64,000 bases of DNA. Origin: Escherichia phage slur02. The DNA lies in the sequence record NC_028927.1; one strand, given 5' to 3'. The notes under the pieces were generated by a model, which saw nothing but the letters and a program-made list of their open reading frames with translations, made no database searches and was not told the DNA's origin. Positions 47,919 through 58,976 of this stretch are shown here, in pieces (within the stretch, counting starts at the first letter, position 1; each line of letters begins with the position of its first letter). Position numbers and translations under genes: made by a program.

Positions 47919-48389
47919 TTAATCATGTTTCCACACCCCATCGGTATTTGACCAAAGTCGCTGATTATCTGATCCTCGCCACAGCTTTTTAGTCGGAAGA
48001 TTTTTCTCATACTTCCCATCAATAATAACATCAACATATTTAAGCATTTCTAGTTGTTTAATATCTTCAAACTTATATCCTGTCCACAACCAAATGCTTT
48101 TATTGGGATAAAGATTTTTTACTGTTTGAACCACAGAGTGAATCACATCTCTGTTATCAGGATAAAGAGGGTCACCCCCAGTTATAGTTAATCCTTCTAT
48201 ATAATCATTATTCAAACATTCAATTAATTGTTCTAGTGTTTCACCAGTGAATGGAACACCATTTCTAGCATTCCATGTTGATTTATTATAACACCCTTCG
48301 CATTTATGCAAACAACCCGTAACGAAAAGAACGACCCTGCAACCAGGGCCATTCACAAAATCGCAAGGATAAAATCTATCATAATTCAT
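47919..48389 (-). CDS. nrdG: NrdG, anaerobic ribonucleotide reductase activating enzyme (radical SAM)
   Basis: 156 aa; cysteine cluster CLHKCEGC. Confidence 0.9.
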   Translation of the reverse strand: MNYDRFYPCDFVNGPGCRVVLFVTGCLHKCEGCYNKSTWNARNGVPFTGETLEQLIECLNNDYIEGLTITGGDPLYPDNRDVIHSVVQTVKNLYPNKSIWLWTGYKFEDIKQLEMLKYVDVIIDGKYEKNLPTKKLWRGSDNQRLWSNTDGVWKHD

Positions 48390-50203
48390 TGGTGTTTAAC
48401 CCTATGCATGATTTCTTTATTTTTACCGAGATTAAATCCGCGTTCGTTCGGATTTCCCAAATAACCACATGTTCTTCTTATTGTGTTCATCTTTTTAGGA
48501 TCAGTTTCTCCACAGATAGAACAAACAAATCCGTTTTCAGTAGGAGTCATTTCATGGGTACTTCCGCATGTAAAACATTTATCTACTGGCATATTAACAC
48601 CAAAATAATCTAAATGTTGTGCAGCATAATCCCAGACGGCCTCAAGCCCCTTTAAATTGTTTTTCATATCAGGAAGTTCAACATAAGAAATGTGACCACC
48701 TGTCGCAATGAAATGATATGGCGCTTCACGAGAAATCTTTTCAAACGGAGTAATATTTTCTTCTACTGAAACATGGAAACTGTTAGTGTACCAGCCTTTA
48801 TCGGTAACATCCTTTACATTTCCGTATTTTTCTGTATCGAGTTTACAGAAGCGATAACAAAGGTTTTCAGCAGGAGTAGAATATAAACTAAAAGCAAATC
48901 CGGTTCTTTCAGTCCACTGTTTAAGATGAGCATTCATTTTAGTTAAAATTTCTCGTCCAATATCACGACCGACAAGAATATTCAATTCGTGAATACCAAT
49001 GTATCCTAAAGACACTGAACTTCTACCGTTTTTAAATAACTCAATTATGTCGTCATCAGGTTTAAGACGAACCCCGAATGCACCTTCTTGGTAAAGAATA
49101 GGAGCAACAGTTGCTTTAACTCCTTTTAAGGAACTAATTCTACACATCAAAGCTTCAAAACATAAATCCATTCGTTCATTGAACAATTCGATAAATTTCT
49201 GTTCATTGAACTGTGTTCCAATATAAGAATCTAATGCGATACGAGGAAGATTCAGTGTTACAACACCGAGATTATTACGTCCATCAAGAATTTCATTGCC
49301 AGTCGAATCTTTCCATACGCCCAAGAAACTACGGCAACCCATTGGAGAAACAGGAACAGATGAACCAGTGATAGCTTTATTATTCTTAGCTGAAATAATA
49401 TCAGGATACATCCTTTTGCTTGCGCACTCTAGAGCAAGTTGCTTAATGTCGTAATTCGGATCGTCTTTATAAAGATTAACGCCTTCTTCAACGAACATAA
49501 CAAGCTTAGGGAAAATAGGAGTTATTCCATCACGACCAAGACCTTTAATACGATTTTTCAGAATTGCTTTCTGAATCATTCGTTCAGTCCAGTCAGTTCC
49601 CGTACCAAATGTAATTGTTACAAAAGGAGTTTGTCCGTTTGAACTAAAGAGAGTATTTACTTCATATTCATAAGCTTGGAATGCATCGTATACGTCTTTT
49701 TCTGTTTTAGATTGAGCATAATTCAGTGCATCGGCGATTTGCCATTTTTCTGCATCCTCAATATGTTTTGCATAGGTGCGTTTAACATAAGGAGAAAGTA
49801 CTTTATCTACATTCGCAAAAGTCGTTCCGCCGTATTGGTGAGAAGCAACCTGTGCAGTAATTTGTGCCATAATTGCAGTAGCAACTCCAATTGATTTAGG
49901 AGTTTCAATCTGTGCATTACCAAGCTTAAATCCGTTCTCAAGCATTCCTTTTAAATCTACTAAACAGCAATTAGTAAATGGAAGAGCAGGGGAATAATCA
50001 ATATCATGGAAATGAATAATTCCGCTTTCATGCGCTTTCATAATAAAAGACGGGACCATATTTTTGGCAATGTGTTTAGACACAATACCAGCCATAAGGT
50101 CCCGTTGAGTTGGAAAAACACGAGAATCTTTATTAGCATTCTCGTTTAAAAGGTCTTTATTAGTTTTATGAATCAATCCTTCAATTTCTTTTTCAATTGT
50201 CAT
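48386..50203 (-). CDS. nrdD: NrdD, anaerobic ribonucleotide reductase, intron-less
   Basis: 605 aa continuous ORF; C-terminal glycyl-radical motif RTCGYLG and zinc cysteines. Confidence 0.95.
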   Translation of the reverse strand: MTIEKEIEGLIHKTNKDLLNENANKDSRVFPTQRDLMAGIVSKHIAKNMVPSFIMKAHESGIIHFHDIDYSPALPFTNCCLVDLKGMLENGFKLGNAQIETPKSIGVATAIMAQITAQVASHQYGGTTFANVDKVLSPYVKRTYAKHIEDAEKWQIADALNYAQSKTEKDVYDAFQAYEYEVNTLFSSNGQTPFVTITFGTGTDWTERMIQKAILKNRIKGLGRDGITPIFPKLVMFVEEGVNLYKDDPNYDIKQLALECASKRMYPDIISAKNNKAITGSSVPVSPMGCRSFLGVWKDSTGNEILDGRNNLGVVTLNLPRIALDSYIGTQFNEQKFIELFNERMDLCFEALMCRISSLKGVKATVAPILYQEGAFGVRLKPDDDIIELFKNGRSSVSLGYIGIHELNILVGRDIGREILTKMNAHLKQWTERTGFAFSLYSTPAENLCYRFCKLDTEKYGNVKDVTDKGWYTNSFHVSVEENITPFEKISREAPYHFIATGGHISYVELPDMKNNLKGLEAVWDYAAQHLDYFGVNMPVDKCFTCGSTHEMTPTENGFVCSICGETDPKKMNTIRRTCGYLGNPNERGFNLGKNKEIMHRVKHQ

Positions 50204-51972: not shown

Positions 51973-52215
51973 TTATTCCTTAATTCCTAGTACTTGTTTA
52001 AAAGTCTCGTCGTAATCAAGACTTTGGCCCGTTTGTTCTTTATGTTTGTATATAATATCACTTACTTCTGATAGCATATTTTTATATGAACGAGTTAAAG
52101 CAGATTTAAGCACACTGTATCTATCAGGAAATTTACCATGTTCATTATAATAAGCTATTGCTAATTCACGGACTGCCTTTTCAGCAGCCTCCATATATTC
52201 TTTACGCTTGGTCAT
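51973..52215 (-). CDS. hypothetical protein (about 80 aa)
   Basis: Track ORF trimmed to [13 protein letters not shown] start. Confidence 0.4.
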
Positions 52216-52519
52216 TTTCTTCTCGGTCAAATCGGTGTTTACAATGGCGGCATTTATAACGAAGATTACTAGTCTGCCAATGGACCAATTGCACCTGTTC
52301 AGTTCCACATTCAGGGCAATTAGGAACGTTTTTAGAAGCCCTTTCGCGACGTTTAACCATAGCCATAATGGCATCCCATGCTGGAGGTTTAAAATCTAAA
52401 TCGTCACAACCATGAATCTTTCCACGCATTTCCATATCATCTTCCTCACCAGCCATAATAATTTTAATTAAACTGGAATTACTTGAAGCTGCAATGTCTT
52501 CTAATAGACGCTTTTTCAT
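52202..52519 (-). CDS. zinc-finger protein (105 aa)
   Basis: CPECG...CRHCKH zinc ribbon. Confidence 0.5.
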
Positions 52520-53445
52520 TTCAATACCTCAATAGCATTACGTAAACCATTTGCTTTTGCATTAAGAGCTTTTAACAATTTGGTGTGTTCTGCAATTTGG
52601 GCTTCAACTTCAATCAAACGAGCATTGAGATATTCGCGTTCTTCACTCAGATTATCAACCTTTTCTACTTTAGGCTCTTTTACAACTGTCTTATATGTAT
52701 TAGGGTTCTTCAGTTTAATTAGAATGCGTGAACTGTATAACATTGAACCATTATCTTCGGTTTCGTCATACATTTCTACTACATCCATAATTTTTAACAT
52801 CATGCGGAGTTTATAAGACAACGAACGAATAGTTTTGTTGTGCTTATTAATTTCTTTAGCTGTCATGGTGCCGAGATTACGTGAGTAATAATAAGGAACC
52901 TGGATATTAATTAATACTGATGAACCACCTGGCTTGTGTGTTACTTCATCAGCAATAACCCAATCCTTAACATGAACTGTATTTGTACGGTCATCGCCCG
53001 CGGTAAATAGTTTGCGAGCATGCTTAAAAAGCATATTCACTTGGTCATTGAATTGACAAGCAAATTTATCAGCAAATTTAGTTTCAGGAATGGTAGATAA
53101 CCAATCAGCCAAATGGGTCTTTTTAACATCGTTAACAATAGTAAATTCAACCAAATCAGTTATAGATGTCTCAGATTTAATAAAGCTCGGCTTCATAAAG
53201 TTTTTAATGTTATCGCGAGCTACAGTAGAAGATAACATACGAGAACGTTTAAACCATTGAAGCAAATTGCCCAACGAATGAGAATAAGCGTTTTGAGTAT
53301 CTTTACAGATATGATTTTCCTGGCCAACATATTGAAGGAAATCACGAAGAATATTATTGATTACTGCTCTGTGTCCGATCTGATAATTACGGTGTTTAGT
53401 AATAAGACTGTCAAAATAATCAATATAATGTTTACGAGTTTTCAT
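52516..53445 (-). CDS. paralog family member A (309 aa) with C-terminal coiled coil
   Basis: Shares motif LFKHARKLFTAGD with next three ORFs; heptad C-terminus. Confidence 0.6.
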   Translation of the reverse strand: MKTRKHYIDYFDSLITKHRNYQIGHRAVINNILRDFLQYVGQENHICKDTQNAYSHSLGNLLQWFKRSRMLSSTVARDNIKNFMKPSFIKSETSITDLVEFTIVNDVKKTHLADWLSTIPETKFADKFACQFNDQVNMLFKHARKLFTAGDDRTNTVHVKDWVIADEVTHKPGGSSVLINIQVPYYYSRNLGTMTAKEINKHNKTIRSLSYKLRMMLKIMDVVEMYDETEDNGSMLYSSRILIKLKNPNTYKTVVKEPKVEKVDNLSEEREYLNARLIEVEAQIAEHTKLLKALNAKANGLRNAIEVLK

Positions 53446-53497
53446 ATTCTTCTCACTTGGTTAATGATTTATACTCCGAGCCATCCTTGGCTTTAAA

Positions 53498-54499
53498 TTA
53501 CTTAATTAACTGTAAAGCTTGTTCAAGACGATCAAGACGATTAACGGATTCTTCCCAAATCTTTTTAGCCTGCTCATATTCTTTCTGCGCTTTATTAGAA
53601 ATTTCTAGAACTTCTTTATAAGCTTTTTCTAGTGCAATAACTTCTGGACGAATTTCTACCGGTTCAGGAGAATCATCAAGATTATCCATTAGTTCCTCAA
53701 GGGTAGTTTCTTCTTTAGGAGTATTCACAATTTCATCACATTTTTGTTGGTAAATTTCTTTATCAGTCGGTGAGTACGCACACTTTACTTCACGAAGACT
53801 AACTACAATTTTATATCCTTCCCAACCGCATATATTCTTAAAAGGATATGTATGAATATTTTCTACTGTTTCCATACAAAGTAATGCGGTCTCTAATTGA
53901 CGAGTTATAGTGCTAGCAATTGAGAAAAATTTATTAATGTTCTTTTGGTTAGTTTCTGGTGTAAAAAATCCATAATTCACAAAAATAGCTACTTTATTTT
54001 TATCAAGTTCATATTCTTTTATGATAATCATATCAGAAGCCAAAGGATGAATTTGACGATAATCACCATAACATAATTTAGAAGCTGATTTTAGAATTTG
54101 CTTCTTAAAAAGTCTGAAATTACTAATCCAACGACGAGTAAAAATATTCTCAGGGTCTTCTTTATTATTAAGATGATAAGAATTAACATCACCGAACCAA
54201 TTATATCCTACTACATCTTTGGTTCGTTTAATTTCTTTCCCAAAATTACCAAGAATATCCCGATTAACCAAATATGAAAGAAGACGAGACTCTTTAAAGG
54301 TTTTCTTGATAACATCTTTATCTACACGGCTAGAAATTTTACGAATTTCATGAATAAATTTAGTAGAAGAAACAATACTTGCATCAACACTATTGAGCCA
54401 TTGATTGATAATAGAAAGAACGATATTTTGACCAAACATCGGTATAGCTTTATCATCAATAACGCTATTGAATGATTTGATATATTCGTTACGAGTCAT
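53498..54499 (-). CDS. paralog family member B (about 333 aa)
   Basis: Start moved to ATG after GAGGAG SD; motif QILKSASKLCYGD; C-terminal coiled coil. Confidence 0.6.
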   Translation of the reverse strand: MTRNEYIKSFNSVIDDKAIPMFGQNIVLSIINQWLNSVDASIVSSTKFIHEIRKISSRVDKDVIKKTFKESRLLSYLVNRDILGNFGKEIKRTKDVVGYNWFGDVNSYHLNNKEDPENIFTRRWISNFRLFKKQILKSASKLCYGDYRQIHPLASDMIIIKEYELDKNKVAIFVNYGFFTPETNQKNINKFFSIASTITRQLETALLCMETVENIHTYPFKNICGWEGYKIVVSLREVKCAYSPTDKEIYQQKCDEIVNTPKEETTLEELMDNLDDSPEPVEIRPEVIALEKAYKEVLEISNKAQKEYEQAKKIWEESVNRLDRLEQALQLIK

Positions 54500-54527
54500 A
54501 TTAATCTCCTCATTAGAAAGTAAGAAC

Positions 54528-54560
54528 ATTATACCACATCTTTGTGGCGAAGTAAACTAG
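54528..54560 (-). promoter_or_regulatory. early promoter upstream of paralog B
   Basis: GTTTAC, 17 nt, TATAAT; palindromic spacer CCACAAAGATGTGG. Confidence 0.55.
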
Positions 54561-55582
54561 TTTAGTGCATTTAGTGCATTGTTCAGTTTAGAACGTTGCT
54601 TTGTCAGATTTTGAACCCTTGACTGAGCTTGTTCTAACACCTTTTCAGCTTCTAGCACTTCATTGGTCGCTTTAACGAGTTCATCATCTACTGCCTTAAG
54701 AGACTTCTCAATCGCGTCAGCGTGCCATTTTTCTACAGGTTTAAGACTCGGATTTTCAACAGGAAGAAAATTCACTTTATTGAATTTCCATGCATCATTA
54801 TTACCTGAACTATACATCCAAAATTTAGAATCGTTTGATGAGTAATTGGATAAATTTAAATTTAAGTTATCTTGCACTTCTTGCTTTTTCTCTTGCGGGA
54901 CTTCGTCCTTTCTCAAAAAATCGTATTTAAATGAAACGATCATATCAAGTTCATATGTTGTCGTATCTAACTTAAATCGTTCAAAACGAGGTAAAATCTT
55001 AGATTGAACAGCAGCAACAACATCCATATACTTAAATGCTTCTGTCAACTGTGATTTAAGGCATTCACAAATTGAAAGAGAATTTTTTGTATTAGGTTTA
55101 AAGCTAATTCGTGCAGTTCTATTATTTTCTTTTAACGGTCTTACTTCCATCTGAAGAGTATAACCATCAAATTTCAGATTCTTTAAGTTAATATCAGAAC
55201 CTTTTAATCGACTAGCCGTAGACAAAATTTGCTTTAATTGTTTACGGAATAGAGCAATAAATCTCCATTCAAGACGATAATGATTTGGATTAAAAAATCC
55301 TGTTGATAAATCAACCTTACTCTGACCAACGCCTTGAACAAATAGAGGATTTTTATAATCAATAGTTTTACAGAAATCGGTGAGCTGCTCACGAGCAGTC
55401 ATTTGTGTAATATATCCCGCTTTACTAAAATGACGTAACCATTCACTGCTATTCATATATTTAAAGTGAATGGAACTATTAACTCTATCAGGGTCTAAAT
55501 TATTTTGGCACAAAAATGTCATAACATTACGGGTATAGCTAGCATTACGAACCATATCTTCAATTTGAGAACGAGTTTTCAT
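54557..55582 (-). CDS. paralog family member C (341 aa)
   Basis: Motif QILSTASRLKGSD; C-terminal coiled coil. Confidence 0.6.
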   Translation of the reverse strand: MKTRSQIEDMVRNASYTRNVMTFLCQNNLDPDRVNSSIHFKYMNSSEWLRHFSKAGYITQMTAREQLTDFCKTIDYKNPLFVQGVGQSKVDLSTGFFNPNHYRLEWRFIALFRKQLKQILSTASRLKGSDINLKNLKFDGYTLQMEVRPLKENNRTARISFKPNTKNSLSICECLKSQLTEAFKYMDVVAAVQSKILPRFERFKLDTTTYELDMIVSFKYDFLRKDEVPQEKKQEVQDNLNLNLSNYSSNDSKFWMYSSGNNDAWKFNKVNFLPVENPSLKPVEKWHADAIEKSLKAVDDELVKATNEVLEAEKVLEQAQSRVQNLTKQRSKLNNALNALN

Positions 55583-55590
55583 GGTGTTCC

Positions 55591-56478
55591 TTAAGATTTA
55601 AGTAAATCAACAATTTTAATTAATTTTTCACGCTCAGATTTAGCTTTACTACTCAGTCCAGATAGTCTGAAAATTTCATCGTCATATTGTTGAATAGAAA
55701 TATTCAGCTCTTCAATCTGCTTATTAAAATAATCAATTTGTTCAGAATGTTTTTCGTTACTACGAACTGGTACAGGTTTTGTAGGCAATTTAGTTGAACT
55801 GGATTCATCCGGGCGATAAATTAAAATACAACTTGAACCAATAGGGCATTTAGCACCAGATGAATATTCTAATGTTCCGGCTTCTTTTAAAACTTCAAAA
55901 GCTAAACAGAGATGATGCCCCATATTAACATAATCTGTAGAGTGAGCTCTGATATAATAATCATCGCCGCGAATACTAAATTTAAAGCATTTAAGGTCTT
56001 CTGTATTATTGGTCTTAAAAATCATTTGTTTATCTAGACCTTTAGCTAATCGAGCGCCTAATGCTAATAATCGTCGTTGATTTTCCCACAAATCCGTAAT
56101 CATTTGATCGAATGATAATTTAGGCATTAGTCGACCATAAAGGTCATATCCTTTATTATAATTGCGAAGGATTTCACTCGCATTAATACGAGACAACGCT
56201 CCAATTTTATTAAGGGCTTTCATGATGCGATCAGATAAACTCATTCCAGACCCGTTTGTTCGCTGTAAATGTTTATCTAATCCAAACCCAATATCAACTT
56301 TAAACTTATCTAAAATTTCTGCATGAACATCTCTGTCAATAACATTCAAATCCAAAGTTGGGTTAAATCTATGAAAAAATTTATCTGGCTCTCCACGACG
56401 AAGTACAGTCCATTCATTCAATTTTTTATTAACTAAAGATTTAATTACTGCATTGACATTATTAATTACTACTGACAT
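55591..56478 (-). CDS. paralog family member D (about 295 aa)
   Basis: Start moved to ATG after GAGGA SD; motif LLALGARLAKGLD; C-terminal coiled coil. Confidence 0.6.
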   Translation of the reverse strand: MSVVINNVNAVIKSLVNKKLNEWTVLRRGEPDKFFHRFNPTLDLNVIDRDVHAEILDKFKVDIGFGLDKHLQRTNGSGMSLSDRIMKALNKIGALSRINASEILRNYNKGYDLYGRLMPKLSFDQMITDLWENQRRLLALGARLAKGLDKQMIFKTNNTEDLKCFKFSIRGDDYYIRAHSTDYVNMGHHLCLAFEVLKEAGTLEYSSGAKCPIGSSCILIYRPDESSSTKLPTKPVPVRSNEKHSEQIDYFNKQIEELNISIQQYDDEIFRLSGLSSKAKSEREKLIKIVDLLKS

Positions 56479-56485
56479 ATTTTCC

Positions 56486-56893
56486 TCACTCAATTTCAAT
56501 TTTACTAAATACGCAGAATATGATGGAAAAGACTATATAAGCACCGCATACAGATTGAACTAATACCATTCCAAAGAACCAAACAATATTATCAAACAAT
56601 GTCTGTTTTACGTCGAAAGGACGTAAACTTACAGTAATATTATCGCCTTTTTCTATTGATGAATACATCTCTGGGGAAATATATTCACTAAATCTATAAC
56701 CGTCTTTGAGTTCATATACGGCAATAAACGATAAACTAGACCCCTTTCCTTGAGTTCCTGTAAGGGTATTAACTACAGTAACATCATAATCTTTATAATG
56801 CATATAATCATTAATTGCGTAATAACCATATGCAATTACTATACATAAACAACATATCAATAAATTCAATCTTTTAATTATCAACTGTTTCAT
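56486..56893 (-). CDS. membrane protein (135 aa)
   Basis: N- and C-terminal hydrophobic helices. Confidence 0.5.
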   Translation of the reverse strand: MKQLIIKRLNLLICCLCIVIAYGYYAINDYMHYKDYDVTVVNTLTGTQGKGSSLSFIAVYELKDGYRFSEYISPEMYSSIEKGDNITVSLRPFDVKQTLFDNIVWFFGMVLVQSVCGAYIVFSIIFCVFSKIEIE

Positions 56894-57504: not shown

Positions 57505-57538
57505 ATAGTACCACAGAGGAACAGTCTTGTAAACCACT
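57505..57538 (-). promoter_or_regulatory. early promoter with conserved leader
   Basis: Conserved module GTTTAC...TACTATACAACTATCAACTAC. Confidence 0.55.
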
Positions 57539-58943: not shown

Positions 58944-58976
58944 ATAGTACCATAAAGCTTTATGCTTGTAAACAAC
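58944..58976 (-). promoter_or_regulatory. early promoter upstream of AAA+-like gene
   Basis: Conserved module followed by TTGGAGAATAAAATG. Confidence 0.55.

Follow-up and report, generated by a model that had tools for sequence, protein, structure and literature searches.

Old, diverged paralogs of the anti-Dsr1 gene nrdC.5 in a tandem array of a T4-like phage

The window analysed here is a 64,000-nucleotide stretch of Escherichia phage slur02 (NC_028927.1), of the genus Tequatrovirus, and our subject is the run of four consecutive minus-strand open reading frames (ORFs) within it that comprises nrdC.3 (52516..53445, 309 amino acids (aa)), nrdC.4 (53498..54499, 333 aa), nrdC.5 (54557..55582, 341 aa) and nrdC.6 (55591..56478, 295 aa). 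A first-pass annotation had reported four such ORFs, and they are seen where it placed them, at 295-341 aa after correction of the starts. Profile comparisons indicate that NrdC.3, NrdC.4 and NrdC.5 are homologous in their globular parts, and NrdC.6 is quite likely a distant member of the same family. NrdC.5 is the ortholog, at the equivalent position of the locus and with 93.6% aa identity over 342 aa, of the T4 protein that counteracts the host defence Dsr1. On balance, and with some reserve, we favor the explanation that the array consists of old duplicated early genes with one phage-specific architecture, whose products would be oligomeric binding inhibitors of host defence.

Family alignments were built from database homologs and from the loci of other genera, and the resulting profiles (C3 to C6, after the genes) were compared with HHalign. 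BLASTP among the four proteins detected the C3-C4 pair only (E=2e-7, 25% identity over 226 aa). Full-length HHalign gave 98.3% for C3-C4 (E=2e-14), 93.9% for C4-C5 (E=1.6e-7, 249 columns) and 88.9% for C3-C5. Because coiled coils can inflate such scores, the comparison was repeated without the linker and tail; C3-C4 stayed at 98.3%, and C4-C5 gave 90.3%, over 149 columns. For an empirical null, the family profiles were compared with the 78 minus-strand ORFs of the window of at least 100 aa, taken as single sequences, and nearly all unrelated ORFs scored below 5%. The homology of the globular parts of NrdC.3, NrdC.4 and NrdC.5 is thus solid, since the scores persist without the tails and nearly all unrelated ORFs fall below 5%. 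Repeats between the paralogs at the level of DNA amounted to chance 14-27-mers only, and therefore the duplications are old, with no recent gene conversion. The proposal of old duplication followed by divergence is accordingly borne out, by profile alignments that are significant with the tails removed as well and by the lack of nucleotide repeats. Profile and HMM (hidden Markov model) scans of the ORFs found no further paralog within the 64-kb window.

The internal motifs listed in the first-pass annotation align with each other in both MAFFT and HHalign, and the second conserved block that it had pointed out aligns across the four proteins (IMDVVEMY, CMETVENI, YMDVVAAV and FEVLKEAG). We found a third block common to all four, [KR]x[SG]xΦ[ST]xxxAxxxΦxN[FY], and they also have in common a linker, PxxKPVE, and the end of the tail, [QE]RxKLxxxΦxxLK; in a 14-sequence alignment, four blocks were common to all subfamilies, NrdC.6 included. 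Block A of NrdC.5, KAGYITQMTAREQLTDFCK, lies at 55367..55423 (minus strand, as for all blocks and tails), and its aligned equivalents are at 53191-53247 in NrdC.3, 54236-54292 in NrdC.4 and 56152-56208 in NrdC.6. Block B, the motif helix (FIALFRKQLKQILSTASRLKGSD, 55193..55261 in NrdC.5), aligns with 52990-53064, 54062-54130 and 56032-56103 of the same three, and is the most conserved part of each gene, with nonsynonymous variation (pN) of about 0. Block C, the second core helix (LKSQLTEAFKYMDVVAAV, 55007..55060 in NrdC.5), aligns with 52768-52821, 53855-53908 and 55870-55923; the AlphaFold2 (AF2) models place helices at residues 168-185 of NrdC.5 and 186-199 of NrdC.6.

A Pro-rich linker and a C-terminal heptad helix follow at 54560..54754 in NrdC.5 and, by heptad analysis, at 52519-52680 in NrdC.3, 53501-53668 in NrdC.4 and 55594-55779 in NrdC.6. 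The heptads confirm the coiled coils that had been proposed for the C-termini: the a/d positions are 80-93% hydrophobic, compared to 17-29% elsewhere, and the helix is about 50 aa long. In the AF2 model of NrdC.5 (mean predicted local distance difference test score, pLDDT, of 66) the tail is a single 57-residue helix, 284-340, with block-mean pLDDT of 78-91 over 290-340; in that of NrdC.6 (mean pLDDT 78) it is a helical hairpin of 30+18 residues. The two models present a common order of elements, consisting of N-terminal helices, the long motif helix, a beta-hairpin, a helix, a second beta-hairpin, a low-confidence linker and a long C-terminal helix, and the alignments of NrdC.3 and NrdC.4 to NrdC.5 cover these elements. 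The family has no match among solved structures or known domains, and when PDB sequences were searched with profiles from the C3/4/5, C6 and core-only alignments, designed helical repeats were all that came up. As the predicted fold is without a solved relative, a structure would be new. PADLOC defence-system models (E at least 0.003) and an NCBIfam scan of the four proteins gave noise only. In the C3/C4/C5 alignment T3, R4 and F70 alone are invariant. The small number of invariant polar residues, together with the lack of a match to any enzyme family of Pfam or NCBIfam, fits a binder rather than an enzyme.

The membership of NrdC.6 required separate evidence. It is linked to the family by the profile of single-copy homologs, by the predicted order of elements, by structural matches and by synteny, and on these grounds we consider it quite likely to belong to it. 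The NrdC.6 HMM matched Kanagawavirus proteins with E=8e-10 and 1.6e-7 over about 170 positions; the motif helix (NQRRLLALGARLAKGLDKQMIFKT against NWRMILTLGSRLCVGSSRELEFKT) lies within this stretch, as does a specific pattern of the tail (DDYDRQIDELTGK against QQYDDEIFRLSGL). A merged profile (KM) of the single-copy Kanagawavirus, Marfavirus and Jiaodavirus proteins scored, at full length, 97.4% with C4, 97.8% with C5 and 95.3% with C6, and without tails 97.1%, 67% and 68% (the last with E=5e-5 over 47 columns); a K2-C6 comparison of the N-domain alone gave 52%, and the full-length bridging scores to C6 were 94-95%. The NrdC.5 and NrdC.6 models have six Foldseek matches in BFVD in common, all uncharacterised Straboviridae proteins of about 310-370 aa (from Pectobacterium PM2, Erwinia Cronus, Klebsiella Mineola, Citrobacter Merlin, Yersinia fHe-Yen9-01 and Serratia PS2), and the gene order C6-C5-C4/C3-nrdC.2 is kept in four genera. 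The alternative, which we judge improbable, is that NrdC.6 is non-homologous and has converged on a coiled-coil tail and a short amphipathic helix, so that the array would be a three-member family with an unrelated neighbor. This would account for the direct HHalign comparisons, which gave 35.7% for C5-C6 and nothing significant for C3-C6 and C4-C6, for the N-domain of C6, which alone reaches at most 68% over 34-47 columns, for the finding that the NrdC.6 HMM matches no other ORF of the window, and for the separate family that both Pfam and PHROGs keep for NrdC.6. It is hard to reconcile with the predicted secondary-structure order, which is the same in NrdC.6 and NrdC.5 along the whole chain, with the span of the six common Foldseek matches (>300 columns), with the extent of the Kanagawavirus match through motif helix and tail, or with the presence of block A in NrdC.6 and the conserved synteny.

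We searched 1.84 billion representative proteins exhaustively with HMMER, using the C3/4/5 profile and accepting E values up to 1e-3. Only 18 proteins matched, all of them phage-like, and the family is therefore confined to T4-like phages; a scan of IMG/VR for additional bridging sequences added only 7 near-duplicates. Among the loci examined, the copy number is four in Tequatrovirus, three in Mosigvirus (C6, C5-like, C3-like) and in both Dhakavirus and Gaprivervirus (C6, C5-like, C4), and one in Marfavirus, Kanagawavirus and Jiaodavirus, where the single gene adjoins the nrdC.2 homolog. We suggest that this last arrangement, one gene beside nrdC.2, would be the ancestral state in T4-like phages, with expansion to three or four copies in the group of Tequatro-, Mosig-, Dhaka- and Gaprivervirus. 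Recombination is still reshaping the array. The database protein P0056 is a natural fusion of NrdC.5 (to residue 273) and NrdC.3 (from residue 127) at a VN microhomology, with nrdC.4 deleted; NrdC.6 of Shigella phage Sf25 carries a tandem internal duplication of residues 183-265; and in phage ACG-C40 the match covers the last 72 aa of NrdC.3 only. Little weight was given to P0235, an unrelated N-terminus joined to an NrdC.5 tail, as a case of module shuffling: none of the 50,697 isolate phage records contains its N-terminus, and the protein may therefore be an assembly chimera.

The array evolves faster than its surroundings. Ratios of nonsynonymous to synonymous substitution rates (dN/dS) were obtained by the Nei-Gojobori method from ten Tequatrovirus genomes, for whole genes and in 30-codon windows, and were 0.30 for nrdC.3, 0.23 for nrdC.4, 0.22 for nrdC.5 and 0.13 for nrdC.6. 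The flanking genes nrdD, 49, nrdC, nrdC.1, nrdC.8, nrdC.9 and nrdC.10 have 96-100% protein identity and dN/dS of 0.03-0.07; nrdC.2 and nrdC.7 are also raised, at 0.19 each. Constraint is strongest in the motif helix and in the final 12-30 residues of each tail (tail dN/dS 0-0.1), and the most variable patches are residues 31-60 of NrdC.4 and NrdC.5 and residues 181-210 of NrdC.5. In nrdC.3, dS reaches 0.59 and there are two allele classes with 60% protein identity. Compared to T4, nucleotide identity drops to 53-69% exactly across the gene (52560-53400), with 95-99% on both flanks, and the allele of the window has 79% aa identity to the Mosigvirus copy and 60% to those of T4, T2, PST and RB33. 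The divergence of nrdC.3 is thus, judging from these sequences, cassette exchange and not divergence in situ; the drop in identity and the likeness to Mosigvirus imply exchange between genera. The first-pass annotation had suggested that the proteins diversified against variable targets. This holds only in part. In its favor are dN/dS 3-10 times that of the flanks, swapped and highly divergent nrdC.3 alleles and a copy number of 1-4 between genera; on the other side, gene-wide dN/dS was 0.13-0.30, and values above 1 occurred neither in a whole gene nor in any 30-codon window, so that positive selection is not demonstrated.

The downstream neighbor of the family in every genus examined, nrdC.2 (52202-52519), encodes a small Zn-ribbon protein with two CxxC pairs and is itself hypervariable in Tequatrovirus, with aa identities of 63-96% and a pairwise dS that reaches 2.1. 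The ATG of nrdC.2 overlaps the stop codon of nrdC.3 (ATGA), which suggests translational coupling.

The function of one member is established by experiment. A T4 mutant from which accessory genes had been lost does not plate on ECOR17, or on MG1655 carrying ECOR17 dsr1, and T4 nrdC.5 alone, expressed in trans, restores plating on Dsr1+ E. coli (Srikant, Guegler & Laub, eLife 2022, PMC9391042). The experiment concerns the T4 allele only, to which the copy of the window is 94% identical in aa. In the literature that could be searched, that study (PMC9391042) was the only functional work to emerge for nrdC.3, nrdC.4, nrdC.6, their DUF families or anti-DSR1 activity; nrdC.3 and nrdC.6 were unmentioned there, and nrdC.4 appeared once, in a genome announcement that noted a single-residue difference. 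The idea that the four are anti-defence proteins therefore holds for NrdC.5, by the published T4 experiment (PMC9391042), and for NrdC.3, NrdC.4 and NrdC.6 it is an inference from homology, which makes them plausible candidates. In the mechanism that we propose, NrdC.5 neutralises Dsr1, a Sir2-type NADase defence of the host, as the T4 experiment indicates. All four proteins would have one architecture, with an N-terminal helical region, an alpha-beta-beta-alpha-beta-beta core that contains the motif helix, a disordered Pro-rich linker and a coiled-coil helix of roughly 50 aa, and would be non-enzymatic, oligomeric binding inhibitors. The coiled coil may provide self-assembly and avidity, and the globular part may, at an early stage of infection, bind to a defence protein of the host or to the sensor domain of that protein. 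Each paralog would have a different host target, and host range would be tuned by the variable surface patches and by cassette exchange, especially of nrdC.3. Several points weigh against this picture. Anti-defence activity is experimentally established for one of the four members; NrdC.5 could act indirectly, for example by masking a trigger or through NAD+ metabolism, instead of binding Dsr1; the oligomeric state is read from heptads only; the NrdC.5 model is only moderately confident at its mean pLDDT of 66; dN/dS above 1 was found nowhere in the ten genomes; and, because the N-domain of NrdC.6 is similar to the others in no more than about 47 columns, its link to the family depends in part on the coiled-coil tail, a type of sequence prone to spurious similarity.

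The related tails could also be read differently, as the means by which the four proteins assemble as subunits of one hetero-oligomeric complex with a single function, anti-Dsr1 or another early one. We regard this as unlikely. All four proteins do have a related C-terminal helix with the same terminal motif, the order of genes in the array is conserved, the genes share early transcription units, and the tails are the most conserved parts. Yet where a genus has one copy, that copy must function alone; natural variants drop or fuse members, as in the P0056 chimera without NrdC.4; and nrdC.5 alone in trans rescues the T4 deletion mutant, though the mutant may retain other paralogs. The tails are, moreover, strongly different between some of the paralogs: tail-only HHalign gave 1% for C3-C4 and 0.3% for C4-C6, with 96.6% for C3-C5, 96.7% for C5 with the Marfavirus protein and 69% for C6 with Kanagawavirus.

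More doubtful still is a reading by analogy, in which the globular core would mimic a phage structural protein, with a fold like that of tail-completion or terminator proteins, and serve as a decoy that occupies the sensors of defence systems directed at virion proteins. In the related DSR2 system, the trigger is a tail tube protein. The NrdC.5 model has many weak Foldseek matches to tail completion and terminator proteins (E 0.011-0.04, prob up to 0.98), all sub-threshold, and the core of the Jiaodavirus homolog (L009:6911-7885) matches Pfam Tail_completion_gp17 (PF11367) with E=0.012 and 16.2 bits, below the cutoff of 24.5 and in this one homolog only. These two independent sub-threshold signals could be chance, or could reflect a real fold relationship of the beta-hairpin/helix core. 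Returning to the binding inhibitors that we favor, a bolder extension, offered tentatively, is that the family is a modular inhibitor scaffold with a conserved oligomerising tail and core and with recognition surfaces that can be exchanged. A different immune sensor of the host would then be neutralised by each paralog, and by each nrdC.3 allele class, possibly by mimicry of a virion protein that the sensors detect. Were that so, the host range of T-even phages would depend directly on how many copies they have and on which cassettes these are.

Placement of the array in an early region agrees with the promoters. The pattern GTTTAC-N15-19-TAHWMT, which we take to be of the T4 early-promoter type, has 16 matches in the window, 16 of 16 on the coding (minus) strand, compared to 1.0 expected from shuffles. 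One of them, GTTTACTTCGCCACAAAGATGTGGTATAAT (54528..54557, minus strand; GTTTAC-N17-TATAAT), stands directly before nrdC.4, its TATAAT (-10) overlapping the first ATG of the nrdC.4 ORF, and is the predicted promoter of nrdC.4, nrdC.3 and nrdC.2. Another, at 57505..57534 (minus strand) before nrdC.8, probably also drives nrdC.7, nrdC.6 and nrdC.5; between it and nrdC.5 we found no minus-strand terminator-like site except a weak 5-bp stem at 55392-55380. A third pattern match is at 58944..58973 (minus strand). Srikant et al. likewise class nrdC.5 as an early gene (PMC9391042).

Compared to T4 NrdC.5 (DUF7235), the nrdC.5 of the window encodes an ortholog, and remote homology can be demonstrated for NrdC.3 and NrdC.4 and is probable for NrdC.6; these three differ from NrdC.5 in having no DUF7235 match and only 14-25% identity. 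A functional analog is DSAD1, the inhibitor of DSR2 from SPbeta-group phages, likewise a phage protein that neutralises a Sir2-domain NADase defence. DSAD1 is small, about 120 aa. According to structural papers on it, it acts by binding the defence protein, whereas binding by NrdC.5 is only presumed; it also differs in belonging to Bacillus phages and in having DSR2, not Dsr1, as its target, and no relationship of sequence or fold to NrdC.5 was found or would be expected. The anti-defence islands of T-even phages, such as the anti-toxin-antitoxin island dmd-tifA-adfA, resemble the nrdC array: both are clusters of non-essential early genes that differ from one close relative to the next, that recombination removes or exchanges, and on which host range depends (PMC9391042). 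That island consists of unrelated small inhibitors, whereas the nrdC array consists of mutual paralogs of about 300-340 aa with a common coiled-coil tail.

The four genes and the function of NrdC.5 were already known; the family relationship, the single-copy ancestry with later expansion, the shared architecture and the cassette behavior of nrdC.3 are new. T4 is the best-studied lytic phage, and about half of its genes are without a function. Tying three orphan genes of about 300 aa (nrdC.3, nrdC.4 and nrdC.6) to one validated anti-Dsr1 gene yields concrete, testable hypotheses; the paralogs could reveal new specificities of counter-defence, and these in turn could lead to defence systems or triggers not known before. 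The nrdC.3 allele classes and the range of one to four copies are natural experiments on host range, of relevance to the choice and engineering of therapeutic T4-like phages.

The 3,984-bp segment that holds the array matches Escherichia phage slur04 with 100% identity and many other Tequatrovirus genomes with 97-99%, and in some near-identical records the four genes carry the names used here. Its neighbors are typical of T4, with nrdD, gene 49, pin, nrdC, nrdC.1 and nrdC.2 downstream and nrdC.7 to nrdC.10 upstream. PHROGs assigns NrdC.3 (E=1e-116) and NrdC.4 (E=6e-169, matching from residue 11) to one family, phrog_1435, NrdC.5 to phrog_2351 and NrdC.6 to phrog_2257, all of them function-unassigned. 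NrdC.5 matches Pfam DUF7235 (PF23882) with 400.5 bits (E=7e-120; gathering score 30 bits) and is the only member in the sense of Pfam, as the scan found no DUF7235 match in NrdC.3, NrdC.4 or NrdC.6; newer accessions appear on database homologs of NrdC.4 (PF26897) and NrdC.6 (PF26899). The public resources therefore keep these genes as three or four separate orphan families. The start of nrdC.4 is most likely Met11 at 54499 and not the first ATG at 54529, because a GAGGAG Shine-Dalgarno sequence precedes Met11 and the early-type promoter overlaps the first ATG; most homologs also start at this point. For nrdC.6, the start is most likely the ATG at 56478, with the Shine-Dalgarno sequence GAGGAA, rather than the TTG at 56499 to which the ORF extends. 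The 12-nt 5' ends of nrdC.3 (53445) and nrdC.5 (55582) are identical, ATGAAAACTCGT, and encode MKTR; M(K)TR is invariant at the N-terminus of the NrdC.3/4/5 alignment (T3, R4), and NrdC.6 is without it.

Two other assignments were rejected. The label "thioredoxin", which many GenBank records give to these genes, is ruled out by the lack of a thioredoxin or glutaredoxin family match in Pfam or NCBIfam for all four proteins, and arose because the name propagated from the neighboring nrdC. In GenBank records of T4-like genomes nrdC.1 to nrdC.11 are often called "thioredoxin", one record has "replication protein", and mobD is entered under the name "molybdopterin-guanine dinucleotide biosynthesis protein", all errors of name propagation. 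A tyrosine recombinase N-terminal SAM-like (XerD-like) domain on residues 30-86 of NrdC.3 scored 13.8 vs 22.3 bits in Pfam and 18 vs 279 in NCBIfam, and the PDB profile search gave no recombinase.

In Dhakavirus and Gaprivervirus, a predicted transmembrane protein of about 71 aa is encoded between the NrdC.6 and NrdC.5 homologs (L003:5647-5939, L004:5763-5978, L005:5736-5951 and L006:6949-7164); it is not at that position in Tequatrovirus. Finally, nrdD (48386-50203) is intact in the window, with 605 aa, whereas in T4 and PST an insertion that contains a homing endonuclease, annotated I-TevII, splits the gene, and an HNH/mobC endonuclease gene lies just downstream; this is an ordinary mobile-element polymorphism.

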